Shown here piece by piece: positions 14,379-54,563 of a stretch of 64,000 bases of DNA; the stretch's first letter is position 1; the number at the start of each line of letters is the position of its first letter. The stretch comes from a virus. Lineage: Duplodnaviria > Caudoviricetes. The translations under genes and the position numbers were made by a program. The notes under the pieces are model-generated. The model saw only the letters and a list, made by a program, of their open reading frames with translations, was not told where the DNA came from and did no database searches. The stretch spans positions 64,001 through 128,000 of the IMG/VR virus record IMGVR_UViG_3300016471_001002. One strand, 5' to 3'.

Positions 14379-15359
14379 ATGGGAGCAGAAAAGTATAATA
14401 AATTTTTAGGAGAGGAAAAAAGCAGAATATTTGAAAGTTTTCTAGTTACGTGGAAAACAAAAGATCAAATACTCGAGATGTATAGAGAAGGTTATTCTCC
14501 TTCTCAACTTGCCAAGTTGTTTGAATATGAAGTTGGATTTGACGAGCTCCGTGAGCAACAATCTACTTTTCACGGTAAAAAACCAAGAAGCTTTTTAGTT
14601 TTTCCGACTATTACAACAAACATCTTTGCAAAAAGACTAACATCTATAATACCCTACTCAAAAGAGTTTCATGATATTCATCTTTCAAAACCGCAATGGT
14701 GGAAAATAAAATTTTCACACCTTGATAAAAGTGAAGATGAAGTTAAAGAACTTGCAAAAGTTCAGCTTCTAGATTGGCAAAAAAGTACATGCGAAAAAAG
14801 AAAAAAGTCAGGTGCTTATAATCCAATTTACACAATTGATTATTGGAAAGAGAAATCCGATGATCCTGAAAAATCAATTGAAAAATATAAACGAGAAATT
14901 AGTCCAAGGTGCATTGAGTTTTGGATAAAAAAAGGATATGACATAAATGAGGCAAAAAAAAGAATAGGCGATACATGTCGACCTGGTGCCATTAAGGTTT
15001 TGAAAAATCTCAATGGAAAAAATGCTTCGAAATTAGAAAAAAGAATTTATGAGCTCATAAATGATGATTCTGTTTGTCAACAGCTTTTTTTGGGCAAATA
15101 TGCATATGACATTTACAAAAAAGAAACAAAGAAGATCGTAGAAATCAATGGAACGTATTGGCACGCAGACCAAAGGGTTTATCAAGATTTGCAGCAAAAT
15201 CTCATTCATGGAACAGTTCAGCAGATTAGAGAAAAAGATGAACAAAAAATATCTTATGCAAAATCTAAGGGATGGGATGTTCTGGTCATTTGGGAACTTG
15301 ACTATTGCAAATCTCCAAATGAAGTGATAGAATCTATTAGAAGGTTTTTCAAAACATGA
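14379..15359 (+). mobile_element. Free-standing homing endonuclease, Vsr/DUF559-like C-terminal domain
   Basis: KLEKRIYE..YAYDIY..IVEINGTYWHAD..KDEQKISYAKSKGWDVLVIWE; (E/D)(F/Y)W.(K/E)K repeats; lies between the two intein halves. Confidence 0.8.
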
Positions 15360-18300
15360 GTAATTTTGTAGAAGTTGTTGAGGTCGAAGAACTTGATTAC
15401 GTCGAAGACGTCTATGATATTACCGTAGAAGATAATCATAACTTCTTTGCAAATGGGATGTTGGTTCACAATTGTCTCGGTGGCACGTTGAGTTATGACG
15501 TCTTTTCCAAATTGCAAAAGATCAAGTTTGATGATCTGAAGCATCAGTTGCTCGATGATGCTGCGCTATTTGAATCTGTCTTGCTCGAGATGGGCAACAC
15601 TTATGATAAGCTTGCAGATGCGGTAGGTCGCGAAAACGTTGCTTTGGAGTTGCAGTTCAATAAACTTCCAGCGCAACATCTTGTCAACCGCGCGCTGATC
15701 GAATTTGCGAAACGAAACTCTTTGTCGAATCGGCTAGTCGTCACCTGCGATTCGCATTATTCTCGTCCTGATAACTGGAAAGAACGTGAGATCTACAAGA
15801 AGCTCGGATGGCTCAACTATCAGAACTTCGATCCTAATATGCTTCCAAAGTCTAAGGATGATCTCAAATGTGAACTGTACCCGAAGAACGCAACCCAGGT
15901 CTGGGATTCATATCTGTCCACAACCGAAGGCATGGATTTCTATGATGATGACCTAATCCGCGAGGCCATCGAACGTACTCATGACATCGTTCATAATGAG
16001 TTAGGTGACATTCATCCCAATAAGGAGATGAAGCTTCCTTCATATGTGATTCCTGAAGGGTCGACGGAAGACAAGGCCCTCGTCGAAGCTTGTAAGAAAG
16101 GATTAATCTGGCGAGGTCTGGATGACAAGCCTGGGTATATCGAGCGAATCAAGTATGAGCTGAAGATTATTCGAGACAAGAAGTTTTCTCGATACTTCCT
16201 CACGATGAAGGCAATCATGGACCTTGCACGTGAACACATGCTGATTGGTCCGGGGCGCGGTTCGGCCGCAGGTTCTCTAGTTGCTTATGTCCTCGGCGTC
16301 ACGAACCTTGACCCAATTGAGTATGACCTTTCATTTGAACGGTTCCTTAATCCCTCTCGCCAGGGCGCTCCTGATATCGATTCTGATATTGGAGACCGCG
16401 ATAAGCTGATCGAACTTCTCCGTGATAATTTTGGTAATAACAATGTTATTCCAATCTCTAACTACAATACCTTTAAGCTTAAGAGCCTTGTCAAAGACAT
16501 TTCAAGATTTTATAACATTCCATTCGAAGAAGTCAATGCTGCTCTTGCTCCGGTAGAAGACGATGTCAAGAAAGAAGTCTTCAAACCTGGTGTCGACAAG
16601 AACCTTTTTGTGTTGACTTATGAAGACGCGATGAAGTATTCTAAGTCGATGCAAGACTTCGTTGCATCGCATCCTGAAGTCGCCGAACCGATTGAGATTC
16701 TTTTCAAGCAGAATCGTTCTCTTGGCCGCCATGCCGGCGGTGTTATCGTGTCTGAAGACATTGCTGAACGTATGCCTCTTATTCTCGCAAAGGGTGAACC
16801 TCAGACTCCATGGGTTGAAGGCATGCATTATAAGCATCTCGAAGAGTTCGGATGGATTAAGTTCGATCTACTCGGCCTCGAAACTTTGCGCATCATCGAA
16901 CGATGCATCTATCTAATTTTGCAAAGGCGTGAAGGAATTGCAAATCCAACGTTCCAAGACATTAAGGCTTGGTTTGATAAACACATGGATCCGAAGAATA
17001 TTGATCTAAATGATCAAAAAGTCTATGAATATGTTTATCACGAAGGAAGGTTTGCCGGCGTGTTCCAATGTACGCAACCTGGCGCACAGCGTCTATTTAC
17101 GAAAGCAAAGCCTCGTAGTATCATTGACATTGCTACTCTAACTTCAATCTATCGTCCAGGTCCTCTTGCGGCAAACGTCGACAAGATCTACATTGGCGCT
17201 AAGAACGAACCTGAAAAGATCGATTACCAACATCCTCTTATCAAGAAGGTGCTAGAACCGACTTACGGATGCATCATTTTTCAGGAGCAAACCATGAAAC
17301 TTTGCTCTGTCGTCGCAGGATTCCCTGAGGCAGAGACGGATACAATTCGCAGAAACATTATGAAACGTTCTGCTTCAAAGAAAGACGCCGCGGCAGCAGA
17401 CGCCAAGAAGGCCAAGGAAGACTTCGTTTCTGGTGCGATGAAGAATGGTGTTCCTGAAAGAGTGGCAGATGAACTCTATGAAAAGATTCTCTTCTTCTCC
17501 GGATACGGTTTTAACGCATCTCACGCAGTGTCTTATGCAATTGATTCTTACTACTGTGCATGGCTCCTCACTTACTTTGAGGAGGAATGGCTTTGTGCTT
17601 ATCTTGAATCGATGTCAGGAAATGATGAGAAGCGTGCTAAGGCTTTCTCAGAGGTCAAAGCGCTTGGATACAAGATCGTAAACATCGACGTCAACTATGC
17701 AACGAAGAGCTGGACTATCCTCGAAGGAAAAAGATTCATGCCAAGCTTCCTTTCATGTAAGGGCGTGGGGGAAGCTGCAGTTGATGAGATCATGGAAAAT
17801 CGTCCATACAAATCAATAGAGGACATGTTATGGAATGAGGACGGTACGTGGAAACATTCTAAATTCAACAAACGAGCTCTTGAAGCCCTGATCGGAATCA
17901 AGGCATTTGACTCATTGGATTGTGTTGGCGTAGATAGAACGTTTAGCAGCTATAGACAAATGTATCAAATCCTGATTGATCATAATAATGAAATCAAGAA
18001 GCATACCAAAAAGAACCCTCTCGTTGGAATGGAAGCATTTCGTAATCTCCTGATCGAATCTAAGGATGAACCTGAGTGGACTCGCGGTGAGATTGTCGAT
18101 AATAGCATTAAATACCTTGGTTCATTTAATGCAGCCATGTTAATGCCTGATGATATCCTAAAGAAGTTGGAATCCAGAGGTGTCAAATCAGTTGATGATC
18201 TTTCAGGTAGTGACATTTACTGGTTTATTGTTTCTGACGCAAAACCCAAAAAGACAAAAACAGGGAAAAACTATTTGCTTTTAACGATTACGGGTATTGG

Positions 18301-18442
18301 AGGTCAAAATCATAGATTGTTCTGTTGGGGGTGGGATGGTATTAGAGAAATTCCCAAGTACAGCGTTTGTCTTTCTGAAATCACAGTCGATGGATACGGT
18401 AATAAAACTTTTATGAGTAAGGTTAAAGTATTGGATTCATGA
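15356..18442 (+). CDS. dnaE: Split intein C-fragment (39 aa, 15356-15472) fused to DNA polymerase III alpha C-terminal fragment
   Basis: VYDITVEDNHNFFANGMLVHN-C (blocks F/G); DSHY, GPGRGSAAGSLVAY, PDIDSD, HAGG, KFDLLGL, RPGP, YGFNASHAVSY, C-terminal OB fold. Confidence 0.95.
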   Translation: MSNFVEVVEVEELDYVEDVYDITVEDNHNFFANGMLVHNCLGGTLSYDVFSKLQKIKFDDLKHQLLDDAALFESVLLEMGNTYDKLADAVGRENVALELQFNKLPAQHLVNRALIEFAKRNSLSNRLVVTCDSHYSRPDNWKEREIYKKLGWLNYQNFDPNMLPKSKDDLKCELYPKNATQVWDSYLSTTEGMDFYDDDLIREAIERTHDIVHNELGDIHPNKEMKLPSYVIPEGSTEDKALVEACKKGLIWRGLDDKPGYIERIKYELKIIRDKKFSRYFLTMKAIMDLAREHMLIGPGRGSAAGSLVAYVLGVTNLDPIEYDLSFERFLNPSRQGAPDIDSDIGDRDKLIELLRDNFGNNNVIPISNYNTFKLKSLVKDISRFYNIPFEEVNAALAPVEDDVKKEVFKPGVDKNLFVLTYEDAMKYSKSMQDFVASHPEVAEPIEILFKQNRSLGRHAGGVIVSEDIAERMPLILAKGEPQTPWVEGMHYKHLEEFGWIKFDLLGLETLRIIERCIYLILQRREGIANPTFQDIKAWFDKHMDPKNIDLNDQKVYEYVYHEGRFAGVFQCTQPGAQRLFTKAKPRSIIDIATLTSIYRPGPLAANVDKIYIGAKNEPEKIDYQHPLIKKVLEPTYGCIIFQEQTMKLCSVVAGFPEAETDTIRRNIMKRSASKKDAAAADAKKAKEDFVSGAMKNGVPERVADELYEKILFFSGYGFNASHAVSYAIDSYYCAWLLTYFEEEWLCAYLESMSGNDEKRAKAFSEVKALGYKIVNIDVNYATKSWTILEGKRFMPSFLSCKGVGEAAVDEIMENRPYKSIEDMLWNEDGTWKHSKFNKRALEALIGIKAFDSLDCVGVDRTFSSYRQMYQILIDHNNEIKKHTKKNPLVGMEAFRNLLIESKDEPEWTRGEIVDNSIKYLGSFNAAMLMPDDILKKLESRGVKSVDDLSGSDIYWFIVSDAKPKKTKTGKNYLLLTITGIGGQNHRLFCWGWDGIREIPKYSVCLSEITVDGYGNKTFMSKVKVLDS

Positions 18443-50504: not shown

Positions 50505-50855
50505 GTGAATACATTTATGAAAGTAGAACCCTTAAATAAAGTCGCGATTACTCTTTTTATAATTGCAAAAATCTTTGGATTAATTGGCGTTAGCATGGGA
50601 TTCATGGGATCAAAAACGCATACAATCGGAGGATATCTTCTTTTCTTTGCAATAATTTCTATTTTTGGATCCATAGGATGCGCATTGTTTCAAACGGCGA
50701 AAGATAAAAAGAAGTTTTCCAAAGAAGACGAAGAGAATGCAAAGCTTAACTCATTTATAAGAGTAAAATCGACTTTAGAACAAGAAATTAAAGATCTTGA
50801 AGAACGTAGAATGGCCCTTGAAAATTTTTTGATTAAAAAAGGAAAAATGCTATGA
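50505..50855 (+). CDS. Two-TM membrane protein with coiled-coil tail
   Basis: Two hydrophobic segments in residues 12-60. Confidence 0.55.
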   Translation: MNTFMKVEPLNKVAITLFIIAKIFGLIGVSMGFMGSKTHTIGGYLLFFAIISIFGSIGCALFQTAKDKKKFSKEDEENAKLNSFIRVKSTLEQEIKDLEERRMALENFLIKKGKML

Positions 50856-51844
50856 TTAAGTTTGCAGATGTAATTTTAGACCTACAACAAGGTGATAGCG
50901 GAAAAGGAAAAATTTCGAACGCATTGGTTCAGACTGGCGAATATACACATTCAGTTAGATACAACGGATCTAATAATGCTGGGCATACGGTTTATGTTGA
51001 AGGCAAAAAAATTGTTACGCATAGCATTCCTGCCGGCGTTCTTCATGGTGTAAAAAGCATCATTGGCCCTGGTTGCGTTCTTAATATAGATCATTTCTTT
51101 GATGAAATGGATATGCTTTATGATAAAGGAATTGATCCGGATGATTTAGTTTTTATTTCAAAAAATACTCATATCATTACTAATAAGCATCTTGAAGAAG
51201 ATCAACAAGACGTTTCAATCGGAACAACAAAACGAGGCAACGGACCTGCATATAGAGACAAGTACGCAAGAAAAGGAAAACGTGCTGAAGATTTTCATGA
51301 ATTACAACCTTATTTAATTGATGTTTATGAAGAATTTCATGAAAAACAAGAATGCAGCATCCTCTTTGAAGGAGCGCAAGGATTTTATTTAGACATAGAC
51401 TGGGGTGATTATCCCTATGTGACTTCTTCTCATTGTACGGTTGGATCTGCAGTTATGAATGGAGTTCCACCACAAAAGATTAGAAGAATTTATGGAGCAG
51501 CAAAAATTTATGAGACTTATGTTGGTTCAAAGAAGTTTGAACCGAAAGATCCAGTTTTTGAAAAGATTAGGCAACTAGGTAATGAGTTTGGTGCAACCAC
51601 CAATAGGCCGCGGCAGTGTAATTGGTTGAATATTGATAATCTAGTTAAAGCAGTAAAAGTCAATGGTGTGACAGATCTTGTTATATCGAAGATGGATATT
51701 TTAAGAGAAATCCGAGCATGGAACATGTATTATAAAGGAAGAAAACTTTCTTTCTCTTCTGAGTGGGCAATCAAAGATTTTATCACGACTCAAGTTGGAA
51801 AAGATGTTATTATACATTGGAGTGATAATCCAGAAGCCATATGA
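50852..51844 (+). CDS. purA: Adenylosuccinate synthetase
   Basis: GDSGKGK (catalytic Asp kept), NNAGHT, GTTKRGNGPAY, FEGAQG, YPYVTSS, GATTNRPR. Confidence 0.9.
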   Translation: MIKFADVILDLQQGDSGKGKISNALVQTGEYTHSVRYNGSNNAGHTVYVEGKKIVTHSIPAGVLHGVKSIIGPGCVLNIDHFFDEMDMLYDKGIDPDDLVFISKNTHIITNKHLEEDQQDVSIGTTKRGNGPAYRDKYARKGKRAEDFHELQPYLIDVYEEFHEKQECSILFEGAQGFYLDIDWGDYPYVTSSHCTVGSAVMNGVPPQKIRRIYGAAKIYETYVGSKKFEPKDPVFEKIRQLGNEFGATTNRPRQCNWLNIDNLVKAVKVNGVTDLVISKMDILREIRAWNMYYKGRKLSFSSEWAIKDFITTQVGKDVIIHWSDNPEAI

Positions 51845-52206
51845 TTTTCAAGGGGAAAAAAATGGCTAGAAAAGTTGACAAACCGTGGGGGCATGAACTG
51901 ATTTGGGCGGAAACTGAAAAATATGTTGGGAAAATTCTCCATATTTCAAATGGGTTTTGTCTATCGCTACAATATCATAACGTAAAAGATGAAACGATAT
52001 TGGTTCAATCAGGTATTTTAACGATGGAAATAAGAGAAGGCGAGTCTAGGAAAATCTTTAAAATGAATTCTGGAGATTCGATAAGAATTAAACCTACTAT
52101 TATTCATAGAATGTCCGCGTATGACGGAGATGTTGACGTGATTGAAGTTTCAACTTCTGAACTTGATGATGTTATCAGGCTAGAAGACAGTTACGGAAGA
52201 GTTTAG
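51841..52206 (+). CDS. Cupin (mannose-6-phosphate isomerase C-terminal-like)
   Basis: KPWGHE, SLQYH..KDET, IHRM, EVST..LDDVIRLEDSYGR. Confidence 0.82.
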   Translation: MIFKGKKMARKVDKPWGHELIWAETEKYVGKILHISNGFCLSLQYHNVKDETILVQSGILTMEIREGESRKIFKMNSGDSIRIKPTIIHRMSAYDGDVDVIEVSTSELDDVIRLEDSYGRV

Positions 52207-52244: not shown

Positions 52245-54563
52245 ATGAATTCATCTTCGCATTTAAAAAAATTTTTTGCTTTAGCCATTTGCGCAATAAT
52301 TTCATGCGTAAGCGAAACAAAAGAGACAACTACTGATGTAGTTTTTTCTGATGACATAAGCGATTCTTCGCAGGGGGGCAACGAACCTAAAGAACCTGAA
52401 TCCTGCAAAGAAGAAGAAAAACGAACTTGTCATGTTGCGCTTGGTGAACATGAAGGTGTTCTTAGTTGCTTCGTTGGAGTTCAAACTTGTGTAGATGGTG
52501 AATGGTCTGACTGTTCAGACGGCGAAGATGTCAAAAAAATTCCAAATGATGATGGCAAACCTTTATCGCTAACCTCTGAAAAAGTTTGCACTGATAATCC
52601 CTGCGATCCTCGTTGCAGTAAGTGGGTAGAAGATGGGAAGTGGAAGGCAGACGGTTCTATCTGCAAATGGCCGTGGAATTGGTCTAGCACTCCAGCGGAT
52701 AGTATCGATAAGGCGAACAAGGGAGGCGCAGCCAAAGAACCTTGCACACATGGTTCGCAATGCCACCAGAACCAGAAGTGTCAAGATCCAGCTCAAGGAA
52801 GTTGCTCTCATGACATCTGCACCAAAGGTGCAGGTTTAATCAAGGGTTGTGAGACCAAGTGTGTTGACAAGATCTGTGACGAGAAGCCTCAGTGCTGCGA
52901 GAAGAAGTATACAGGTACTTGTGAAGTCGAACCTTGCTTGACCTATCAAAAGGGGTTAACTAAAGATTGCGATCCAAATGTCAAGAAGACCTGTGATTGG
53001 GACAAGACGTGTTGCCCTTATACTCAGATCGAAACCTGTAGTTATTGGGGAATCATTGGATATAAACAGGTTTGCGAATGGATCGAAACTTACAAGTGTG
53101 GCTGGCGTAATTACTATTTCTGCGGATGGAGATGGAGAGAAGTATACACATGTGGTTGGCGTTGGAGAGAAATTTATAAATGTGGCTGGAGATGGCGTGA
53201 GTTCTACGTCTGCGGGTGGCGGTGGAGAGAAATATACGTTTGCGGATGGAGATGGAGAGAAGTATACGTCTGTGGCTGGCGACAGACCTATGTTTGCGGG
53301 TGGAATTATTGTTGTAACTTCTTCTGGTGCGAATGGTGCTACACTTGCTGGTGGGATTACCGGTACGAGTGCTGGTGGGAACAAGTATATGTCTATGAGT
53401 GTTGGTGGGAACAGATCTACGTATATGAATGCTGGTGGGAGCTTCGATATGTGTACGAGTGTTGGTGGGAACAGATCTATGTTTATGAGTGCTGGTGGGA
53501 GCAGCAATACGTGTATGAATGTTGGTGGGAAGAGCGTTACGAGTGCTGGTGGGAACTGACACAAAAGTGTTGGGATGAGCCTGAGTACGGTTGGATCTAT
53601 TATTCCTGCGAGAAGAGTTACGAGGGTGAGTGGACCCAAAAGTGCGTAGATCAATACAAGGTTTATAATCCTGGAGCTTGTCCCATGAGTTGGAAGGGAG
53701 ATTGGGATGCCACCTGTATCAATGCGGTCCACGATACATGTCACAACTATTGCGATGGAGTCAAGAAGGGAGCCGGTGATTGTGTAGAATGGGAGGCTCC
53801 AAACTTCGATGACAAGTGTGGAGACTTTGAACTCGGGGTTGGCCTCACCTGTCAATCAGGTAACACGCCGATCGTCCCAATCTGCAACACTGGGTCCAAA
53901 GAAGCACCGAAAGGTATTCCGATCGCAATCATGCCGAAGGGTTCAGGTTATTTTGGAACAGAACCAACATCGCTTCCGGGTGCGAAGTACTGCTACACCG
54001 ATGAAGCTATTCCGGCCGGTGAGTGTCGCAACGTGAAGAGCTGTAATGTGGTCGACGGAGACGAGGTCATGGTCAACCCGTCCACGAACGCCAGCTACAA
54101 CAAGGCTGAGTGCTTCAAGGGTGACAACTGGGGATTCTTCTATAATGCGGCCTGTGGATATCCACCAAAATGTCCAGGGGGTTATCTAGATACCACCAAA
54201 GTGGAATCTTATGAAACTACTTGTGAATCTGGCGAGACACCAGTCTGGGGTTTCTTGTCTTGGGATTCAACAACACCGCCTGGCACAGAAGTTTCATTCC
54301 GCGTGAGGACAGCGGGAACGAAAGCAGATCTTTCTTCTGCAACTTGGTATTCTGTGTCGACCAAATCGACGAATGCATCTCCTGATTGTTTGGCCAGCGG
54401 ACCGTCACCATGTCCGGTTGACCTCTACAACGTGCTTGGAAAGATTCAAGCTCAGAAGAAGTTCCTGGAGTTGGAGGTCAGTATCAAGGTCGACGCTAAC
54501 AAGAAGAACACACCGGTTCTAGAAAAATGGGAGATCAGCTATTCCTGTAAGGAGGAACAGTGA
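52245..54563 (+). CDS. Large exported Cys/Trp-rich protein with mirror-symmetric repeat
   Basis: Signal/lipobox-like IISC; CGWRWRE.Y. repeats then CWWEQ.YVYE repeats; C-terminal beta-domain WDSTTPPGTEVSFRVRTA. Confidence 0.75.
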   Translation: MNSSSHLKKFFALAICAIISCVSETKETTTDVVFSDDISDSSQGGNEPKEPESCKEEEKRTCHVALGEHEGVLSCFVGVQTCVDGEWSDCSDGEDVKKIPNDDGKPLSLTSEKVCTDNPCDPRCSKWVEDGKWKADGSICKWPWNWSSTPADSIDKANKGGAAKEPCTHGSQCHQNQKCQDPAQGSCSHDICTKGAGLIKGCETKCVDKICDEKPQCCEKKYTGTCEVEPCLTYQKGLTKDCDPNVKKTCDWDKTCCPYTQIETCSYWGIIGYKQVCEWIETYKCGWRNYYFCGWRWREVYTCGWRWREIYKCGWRWREFYVCGWRWREIYVCGWRWREVYVCGWRQTYVCGWNYCCNFFWCEWCYTCWWDYRYECWWEQVYVYECWWEQIYVYECWWELRYVYECWWEQIYVYECWWEQQYVYECWWEERYECWWELTQKCWDEPEYGWIYYSCEKSYEGEWTQKCVDQYKVYNPGACPMSWKGDWDATCINAVHDTCHNYCDGVKKGAGDCVEWEAPNFDDKCGDFELGVGLTCQSGNTPIVPICNTGSKEAPKGIPIAIMPKGSGYFGTEPTSLPGAKYCYTDEAIPAGECRNVKSCNVVDGDEVMVNPSTNASYNKAECFKGDNWGFFYNAACGYPPKCPGGYLDTTKVESYETTCESGETPVWGFLSWDSTTPPGTEVSFRVRTAGTKADLSSATWYSVSTKSTNASPDCLASGPSPCPVDLYNVLGKIQAQKKFLELEVSIKVDANKKNTPVLEKWEISYSCKEEQ
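53037..53609 (+). repeat. Two imperfect 30-nt tandem repeat arrays encoding Cys-registered decapeptides
   Basis: TG(T/C)GG.TGG(A/C)G.TGG.G.GA.. five times and GAGTG(T/C)TGGTGGGA.CAG.. five times. Confidence 0.9.

Follow-up and report, generated by a model that had tools for sequence, protein, structure and literature searches.

A phage gene in the stretch of DNA analysed here (the window: 64,000 nucleotides (nt), bases 64001-128000 of the virus record IMGVR_UViG_3300016471_001002) probably encodes a Myxococcota (Polyangiaceae-type) lipoprotein of the family DUF8252, which would carry a two-stranded antiparallel ribbon laddered by disulfides and tuned in length by matched insertions and deletions (indels). 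The gene (52245-54563, + strand) was delimited by translation of its open reading frame (ORF) and by homology. Its product comprises 772 amino acids (aa), among them 70 Cys (9%), 51 Trp and 47 Tyr. The ribbon would be formed by residues 265-455, which lie at 53037-53609 in the frame of this ORF.

When residues between successive cysteines are counted, the intervals run 11,7,7,9,9,9,9,9,7 along the N-terminal arm (N-arm, residues 265-351; 53037-53297, +), 4,0,4,2,2 across the tip (residues 352-367; 53298-53345, +) and 7,9,9,9,9,9,7,7,12 along the C-terminal arm (C-arm, residues 368-455; 53346-53609, +). Each arm contains ten rung cysteines. In the N-arm, five ten-residue units CGWRWRExYx, or more exactly CGWRWRE(V/I/F)Y(T/K/V), are flanked by 8- and 12-residue units; in the C-arm, five ten-residue units CWWEQxYVYE, with the variants CWWE(Q/L)xYVYE, are flanked by 8-residue units. 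The tip reads CGWNYCCNFFWCEWCYTC and adds the cysteines 356, 357, 362 and 365. The mirror-symmetric Cys register, the tip string and both unit consensus sequences had been described in a first-pass annotation of this DNA, and the translation reproduces them exactly. An equally long mirror appeared in none of 200 shuffles of the protein's own Cys intervals, and the same was true of nine relatives. At the DNA level, Tandem Repeats Finder detected two separate 30-nt arrays (53121-53282 and 53363-53531) with 71-84% matches. Independent contigs reproduced the array, one from another sample (52926-53799, no differences) and one from another study (52821-53539, two differences), so it is not an assembly artefact.

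Distances between arm cysteines were even in 168 of 172 cases in nine proteins, and aromatic residues clustered at +/-2 and +/-4 from each Cys. From the even spacing and the two-residue aromatic periodicity it follows that the arms are beta strands with all cysteines on one face. An alpha-helical hairpin was ruled out by this periodicity, by spacings of 8, 10 and 12 residues, which leave no single helical face, and by the structure prediction. AlphaFold2 (AF2), run on an alignment of 40 sequences, yielded a model with a mean predicted local distance difference test score (pLDDT) of 74, consisting in this segment of strands 259-315, 320-357, 362-399 and 404-459. The sole turn falls at residues 358-361, i.e. 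the loop N-F-F-W (53316-53327, +). A single register, i+j=719, is obeyed by the kinks at 316-319 and 400-403, by the ten mirrored Cys pairs and by C357-C362. The very long hairpin predicted by the first-pass annotation was thus recovered as one antiparallel hairpin, not as a solenoid or globule, with turn and kinks in the register of Cys pairing. Among 13 registers tested, i+j=719 gave ten Cys-Cys pairs together with the highest numbers of aromatic-aromatic pairs (24) and of diagonal opposite-charge pairs (19). Seventeen of the 24 aromatic pairs were Trp-Tyr on the Cys face, in agreement with the aromatic zipper proposed earlier. As for the tip, the "small Cys knot" is more simply explained as two further cross-links closing the four-residue aromatic loop NFFW.

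For comparison, 22 distinct complete hairpins of phage and Polyangiaceae-type origin were gathered by protein searches and from viral and metagenome contigs. Homologues had been expected to possess arms of equal length, and, outermost interval aside, 19 of the 22 were exact mirrors, with arms of 3 to 16 rungs. Counts of ten-residue units per arm were 3/3, 4/4 (two sequences), 5/5 (three), 6/6 (eight) and 7/7. Mixed patterns of 8-, 10- and 12-residue units were exactly reversed in the opposite arm as well (for example 7,9,9,11,11,9,11,11,9,11,9,11,9,11), as was a 15-unit alternation of 11 and 9. Even distant bacterial relatives (30-40% identity), built of different Lys-rich or Glu-rich repeats with periods of 6, 8 or 12, were still mirrored; their rungs numbered 12 (P0013), 14 (P0160), 9 (P0008), 8 (P0161) and 7 (P0014). 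Among the relatives, arm length ranged from about 66 to about 178 residues and hairpin net charge from -19 to +41. Judging from these sequences, it is the geometry of the hairpins that is conserved, not their chemistry.

The site of insertion is occupied by 0-93 residues in hairpin-less relatives, which form the majority of the family, vs 160-375 residues in hairpin bearers. Because the insertion splits a small Cys-rich module, the two ends of the hairpin must meet. The far ends of the relatives' hairpins are likewise Cys-closed aromatic loops, namely DWWG, DWWS or, in bacteria, GWGWWGWS. In P0013, P0160 and P0161, an 8-residue Trp/Gly tip loop (approximately GWGWWGW) closed by two Cys is conserved between arms unrelated in sequence and charge. 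In a relative of L006 (L025:2511-4364), a stop interrupts the C-arm and one N-arm unit has Cys in place of Trp, so that the copy is either decaying or affected by an error of sequencing.

The two arms also covary rung by rung, which independently supports their antiparallel contact. In 13 distinct alleles with the tip type of the window, N-arm position 7 Phe stood opposite C-arm position 5 Arg or Trp in all 32 of 32 mirrored rungs, N-arm Ile opposite C-arm Ile or Val in 24 of 25, and N-arm Val opposite Gln or Val in 14 of 14. Paired as mirror images, the units gave a mutual information of 1.33 vs 0.50 when paired in the same order, and the mirror value was reached in none of 5000 shuffles. The types of units were mirrored too: after permutation of C-arm units only among those of equal length, mutual information as high as that observed arose in none of 2000 trials for P0005 and in one of 2000 for P0007.

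In a tree built from the C-terminal region outside the repeats, the window's protein (5/5) grouped in a single clade with L011 (6/6) and L005 (7/7), and branch lengths there were 0.003-0.006. Elsewhere, clades mixed 3/3, 4/4 and 6/6, or 5/5 and 6/6, so that the tree requires at least five concerted changes. When the three near-identical alleles were aligned as DNA, each step corresponded to one clean in-frame 30-nt indel per arm, located toward the tip end of each arm. In keeping with the claim that the two arrays must expand together, matched indels separate the 5/5, 6/6 and 7/7 alleles. A DNA palindrome as the cause of concerted length change was ruled out, since no inverted repeat was found between the arms apart from a single 10-nt chance match. 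In the absence of such coupling at the DNA level, it must be selection on the protein that keeps the register. Array length also varies in natural populations: in a related strain with about 90% identity, one contig has 90 additional nt, i.e. three units, in the N-arm at 53184-53273.

In the model that we favour, a loop of a small Cys-rich module, situated between ...CCPYTQIETC and CEKSYEGEW..., would have been drawn out into the two-stranded antiparallel beta ribbon, with some 95 residues in each arm. After export to the oxidising periplasm, the cysteines would oxidise in the pairs C265-C455, C277-C442, C285-C434, C293-C426, C303-C416, C313-C406, C323-C396, C333-C386, C343-C376 and C351-C368, and two further links are predicted among C356, C357, C362 and C365, giving 10+2 rungs. 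Each rung would be flanked and shielded by cross-strand Trp-Tyr pairs. The result would be a stiff ribbon with one aromatic and disulfide-bearing face and one charged face, ending in the disulfide-closed N-F-F-W loop. With 87-93 residues per arm at 3.3-3.4 A per residue, a straight ribbon would measure about 29-31 nm. Its length would change stepwise, each arm gaining or losing 30 nt in frame, with unmatched alleles staying rare and the register under selection.

Several observations weigh against this model. Within the arms, the confidence of the AF2 prediction dropped to pLDDT 48-75. Direct Arg-Glu pairs between the strands are rare, with two direct opposite-charge pairs at i+j=719; the salt bridges proposed by the first-pass annotation would be diagonal instead. 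The Trp/Tyr face, continuous and exposed, would hardly remain in contact with solvent, so that an oligomer or a complex, not a lone ribbon, has to be seriously considered as the true unit. The function is inferred, and the contigs from RNA libraries, which cover part of a related allele, give at most a weak hint of expression. No VWA domain, which many relatives possess, was matched in the window's protein (P0001). Finally, three of the 22 hairpins had unequal arms. In P0004 the arms contain 6 vs 2 units and no long exact repeat offers itself as the cause; the allele may be genuinely unmatched or the result of a deletion. L028, with 6 vs 5 units, comes from a contig of 2 kb whose 3' end is garbled. 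As for P0006, two additional 22-residue double units lengthen its N-arm, and the excess lies within a 66-nt tandem array with 95-100% identity; an independent Polyangiaceae copy of P0006 shows at least one more C-arm double unit, its contig breaking inside the array. The inequality in P0006 is thus probably an assembly error in copy number. Alleles with unequal arms may be the transient intermediates which the model requires.

The alternative that survives best is pairing of the same N-arm and C-arm between chains, either in a domain-swapped dimer, a higher oligomer or a fibril, or else two intramolecular ribbons packed through their aromatic faces. Covariation and mirror spacing are equally compatible with antiparallel pairing within a chain and between chains, and the continuous Trp/Tyr strip on the Cys face favours self-association. 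We nevertheless consider this arrangement improbable, as the arms are joined by a four-residue loop that is closed by two Cys in register, the ends of the hairpin must meet in the loop of a folded module, and the AF2 monomer model shows an intramolecular hairpin.

It is quite unlikely that the protein serves in lysis or bridges the envelope, i.e. acts as an outer-membrane lipoprotein whose ribbon of about 30 nm spans the periplasm and pushes its aromatic tip into the inner membrane in the manner of a spanin or a fusion loop. The lipobox, the length estimated above, which is near the periplasmic width, and the disulfide-closed aromatic tip would suit such a device. However, the arm lengths found in relatives define no fixed ruler and the same module occurs on bacterial chromosomes. 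Of the hallmarks of unimolecular spanins, the protein has the lipobox; in place of a C-terminal inner-membrane segment there is a polar C-terminus (...SCKEEQ), and its gene stands not in a lysis cassette but among purA-like, cupin and DUF5824 genes, with no holin or endolysin beside it.

Short Cys repeats of 8-12 residues can also build disulfide-bonded beta-helices, as in the antifreeze protein of the beetle Tenebrio. A beta-solenoid or another compact stacked fold, with the mirror spacing being incidental, is very improbable all the same: the coils of Tenebrio-type helices have 12 residues and an internal Cys pair, whereas here a unit of 8-12 residues has one Cys, not two; the spacings are even and AF2 predicts a hairpin; and a solenoid has no need for N-arm unit k to match C-arm unit n+1-k in length and residue type, as it does. 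That the whole pattern stems from mis-assembled or non-coding repeat DNA can practically be dismissed, for although short-read assemblers mis-count tandem repeats and P0006 seems to be affected, identical or near-identical contigs came from independent samples and studies, 22 distinct homologues are in frame, and the longest exact repeat in the window's gene is 27 nt.

Returning to the intramolecular ribbon, all relatives end in a Cys-closed aromatic loop, for which reason we favour a projection of tunable reach that would present its aromatic tip and strip to a membrane, glycan or protein partner. More specifically, it might be a rigid structure of adjustable reach, resistant to proteases and force, which holds an aromatic fingertip and a continuous aromatic strip at a distance from the lipid-anchored body of an envelope or surface protein; displayed by the infected cell, it would most likely serve to remodel the surface of that cell and its interactions, for instance in adhesion, receptor masking or superinfection exclusion. 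This role is put forward tentatively. Taken more broadly, the hairpins may constitute an undescribed architecture, a length-adjustable, disulfide-rung beta ribbon of about 20-60 nm encoded by two arrays that co-evolve rung by rung and common to Polyangiaceae-type bacteria and jumbo phages. Its charge would be free to vary, with geometry and aromatic fingertip conserved. It would serve as a probe of tuned reach for a membrane or glycan at the cell surface, either inserting into this target or binding it, and phages would use it to change the surface behaviour of their hosts. For this combined proposal, the arguments on both sides appear to us evenly balanced.

The statement that no named family has this design needs to be divided: the flanking domains belong to the Pfam family DUF8252, while the hairpin itself has no name. 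The match to PF26780 (DUF8252) is precomputed for homologues with 55-80% identity; it is listed for P0002-P0010 and P0013, as weak or faint for P0004, P0006 and P0007. Full-length homology to these members was found with phmmer (E=0 to P0002-P0007, 1e-108 to 1e-94 to P0008 and P0009). In scans of P0001 and its parts against Pfam, NCBIfam and PHROG there were no matches, the PF26780 model possibly being missing from the copy of Pfam-A used. Among representatives of clusters at 50% identity, 771 proteins matched at E<=1e-3, in the N-terminal Cys-rich, middle and C-terminal domains. Many DUF8252 relatives, including P0008 and P0009, contain a VWA insert. DUF8252 was not mentioned in any paper of the literature searched.

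Export of the protein, which had been claimed as well, fits a lipobox retained in all relatives. In the window it is read from the sequence as I-I-S-C (Cys21) after a signal peptide (52245-52307, +); in P0002-P0009 it takes the form L/I-x-[AS]-C at the same place, and every full-length relative has an equivalent. The signal is followed by N-terminal Cys-rich modules (approximately residues 50-264; 52392-53036, +), conserved in the family with many invariant cysteines and predicted by AF2 with pLDDT 70-94 over most of their length; the final one (...CDWDKTCCPY...) hosts the hairpin insertion. Beyond the hairpin, the C-terminal region (residues 456-772; 53610-54560, +) comprises the remainder of the split Cys-rich helical module and then two beta-sandwich domains. 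These 317 residues were modelled with a mean pLDDT of 80.6. In AlphaFold DB clusters, the C-terminal half matched C-termini of VWA proteins and CARDB-, PA14- and IgGFc-binding-like entries; against the PDB, Foldseek found for it only a generic likeness to beta sandwiches, with template modelling (TM) scores of at most 0.25. The whole model remained below TM 0.1 in the same search, as the rod dominates it. A profile search of PDB sequences matched nothing except the VWA insert of relatives, and a feature search of the ESM Atlas returned scores below 0.85 and no names.

Bacterial members of the family reside in high-GC (guanine plus cytosine) loci together with sigma-54/FHA regulators and Ser/Thr kinases. 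The phage protein is 55-73% identical to high-GC bacterial copies, and the GC content of its gene is 47% vs 39% in the window (43-48% vs 31-41% at related phage loci). This GC offset and the degree of identity point to exchange between Polyangiaceae-type hosts and phages. The offset may fit acquisition from high-GC bacteria, or just reflect the codons of Trp, Cys, Gly and Arg. A copy of P0006 with 98% identity is present in a Polyangiaceae metagenome-assembled genome (MAG), and a single protein query detected the family in two of 61 genomes sampled from the order of this MAG.

Bacterial DUF8252 genes are often preceded, with overlapping start and stop, by a gene for a lipoprotein of about 110 aa (L001:1633-1965, L002:773-1105 and the P0009 contig). 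In this small lipoprotein, nothing is recognisable but a copy of the large protein's first Cys module (C..G..R.C....GEH..V..CF.G...C..G.W..C); the two proteins may be partners. The phage has no such gene upstream of its copy. Gene neighbourhoods differ among the phages that carry a DUF8252 gene; in the P0007 phage contig (L003:6584-7732), a collagen-repeat protein is encoded just upstream of it, with HNH and LAGLIDADG-like genes nearby.

With respect to known systems, two principles are established, the cystine-ladder hairpin and the variable-length stalk, while the scale of the present hairpin and the coupling of its two arrays have not been described before. Cystine-ladder hairpin peptides (theta-defensins, protegrins, tachyplesins, gomesin) share with it the antiparallel hairpin, parallel cross-strand disulfide rungs (predicted here from AF2, the i+j=719 register and covariation, which place the cysteines in register) and an abundance of aromatic and charged residues. 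However, these host-defence peptides are free molecules with 2-3 rungs in 16-20 residues, and no homology links them to the phage protein, in which the hairpin has 10-12 rungs (up to about 17 per hairpin in relatives). In the phage and its relatives, the rungs are 6-12 residues apart and the arms, at 90-180 residues each, consist of two tandem-repeat arrays within a lipoprotein of 772 aa. Nor is this a small free cationic peptide of under about 40 aa, but a segment of 191 residues with 19 Arg+Lys vs 27 Asp+Glu and a net charge of about -8. Tryptophan zippers stabilise hairpins by cross-strand Trp/Tyr pairs at non-hydrogen-bonded positions, and class II viral fusion proteins have long beta structures that are braced by disulfides and end in an aromatic/Gly loop. 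Both are analogies only; they lack repeats, and no match in sequence or fold to either was detected.

The stalks of periscope proteins and fibrillar adhesins are linear arrays of folded domains with a distal binding domain, in which one indel changes the length (PMC8201768). The phage protein resembles periscope proteins in its predicted repeat-built envelope rod of variable reach, with repeat number varying among near-identical alleles. Unlike in periscope proteins, the chain runs out and back, the globular parts are both at the base, the far end (of four residues here) is only an aromatic loop of 4-8 residues, length changes require matched indels in two arrays, and there is a lipobox, not a cell-wall anchor. 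In the literature searched, no paper on a long disulfide-laddered beta ribbon was found. DUF8252 shares the flanking N- and C-terminal domains, and since most of its members have no hairpin, the name leaves the feature undescribed.

Among Myxococcota, CglB is reportedly a surface or outer-membrane lipoprotein, Cys-rich, with VWA and many predicted disulfides. CglD is characterised in the same terms in the available part of its preprint (bioRxiv 10.1101/2023.10.19.562135), in which no hairpin of the present type is mentioned. Compared by description only, their likeness to DUF8252 consists in being Cys-rich lipoproteins, with VWA in many relatives; the COMP-like repeats of the CglD N-terminus and VWA were both missing from the phage protein in Pfam scans. 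CglB and CglD may still serve as useful functional analogues.

Should the model prove right, no longer cystine-ladder hairpin would be known to us from nature, and the case would be a rare one of evolutionary coupling legible by eye, with two arrays gaining and losing units together. The near-identical alleles offer a natural test bed for repeat proteins which change length yet keep register, and the ribbon itself is a candidate for a rigid, redox-lockable nanorod adjustable in steps of about 3.3 nm. Furthermore, the gene provides a handle on the uncharacterised DUF8252, found in Myxococcota and exchanged with jumbo phages, and ties an uncultured freshwater phage to a likely host of Polyangiaceae type.

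Given the size of the virus record (211 kb) and its estimated completeness (65%), the source virus is a jumbo phage. The lipoprotein gene occurs once in the record. The locus was seen in freshwater and lake metagenomes from several studies, and tblastn against 50,697 records of phages gave no match to the gene among cultured phages. Promoter and terminator scans around the gene stayed at chance level. Three further ORFs overlie the repeats (52956-53855, -; 52978-53559, +; 53053-53562, -). They are shadow ORFs in stop-free repeat DNA and not genes, because all evidence from homology and covariation lies in the frame of the 772-aa ORF.

The immediate neighbours of the lipoprotein gene are a purA-like gene, a small cupin gene and a DUF5824 gene. 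Directly upstream (50852-52206, +), a short adenylosuccinate synthetase-like gene (330 aa vs a profile of 416 positions) is followed by that of the cupin (121 aa), which resembles the C-terminal part of mannose-6-phosphate isomerase. A ribonucleotide reductase and a DnaE-like polymerase are also encoded in the window. The polymerase (15356-18442, +) is of the Pol III alpha type and does not belong to family B; DnaE-like polymerases from phages of Bacillus and Streptomyces are about 29-33% identical to it.

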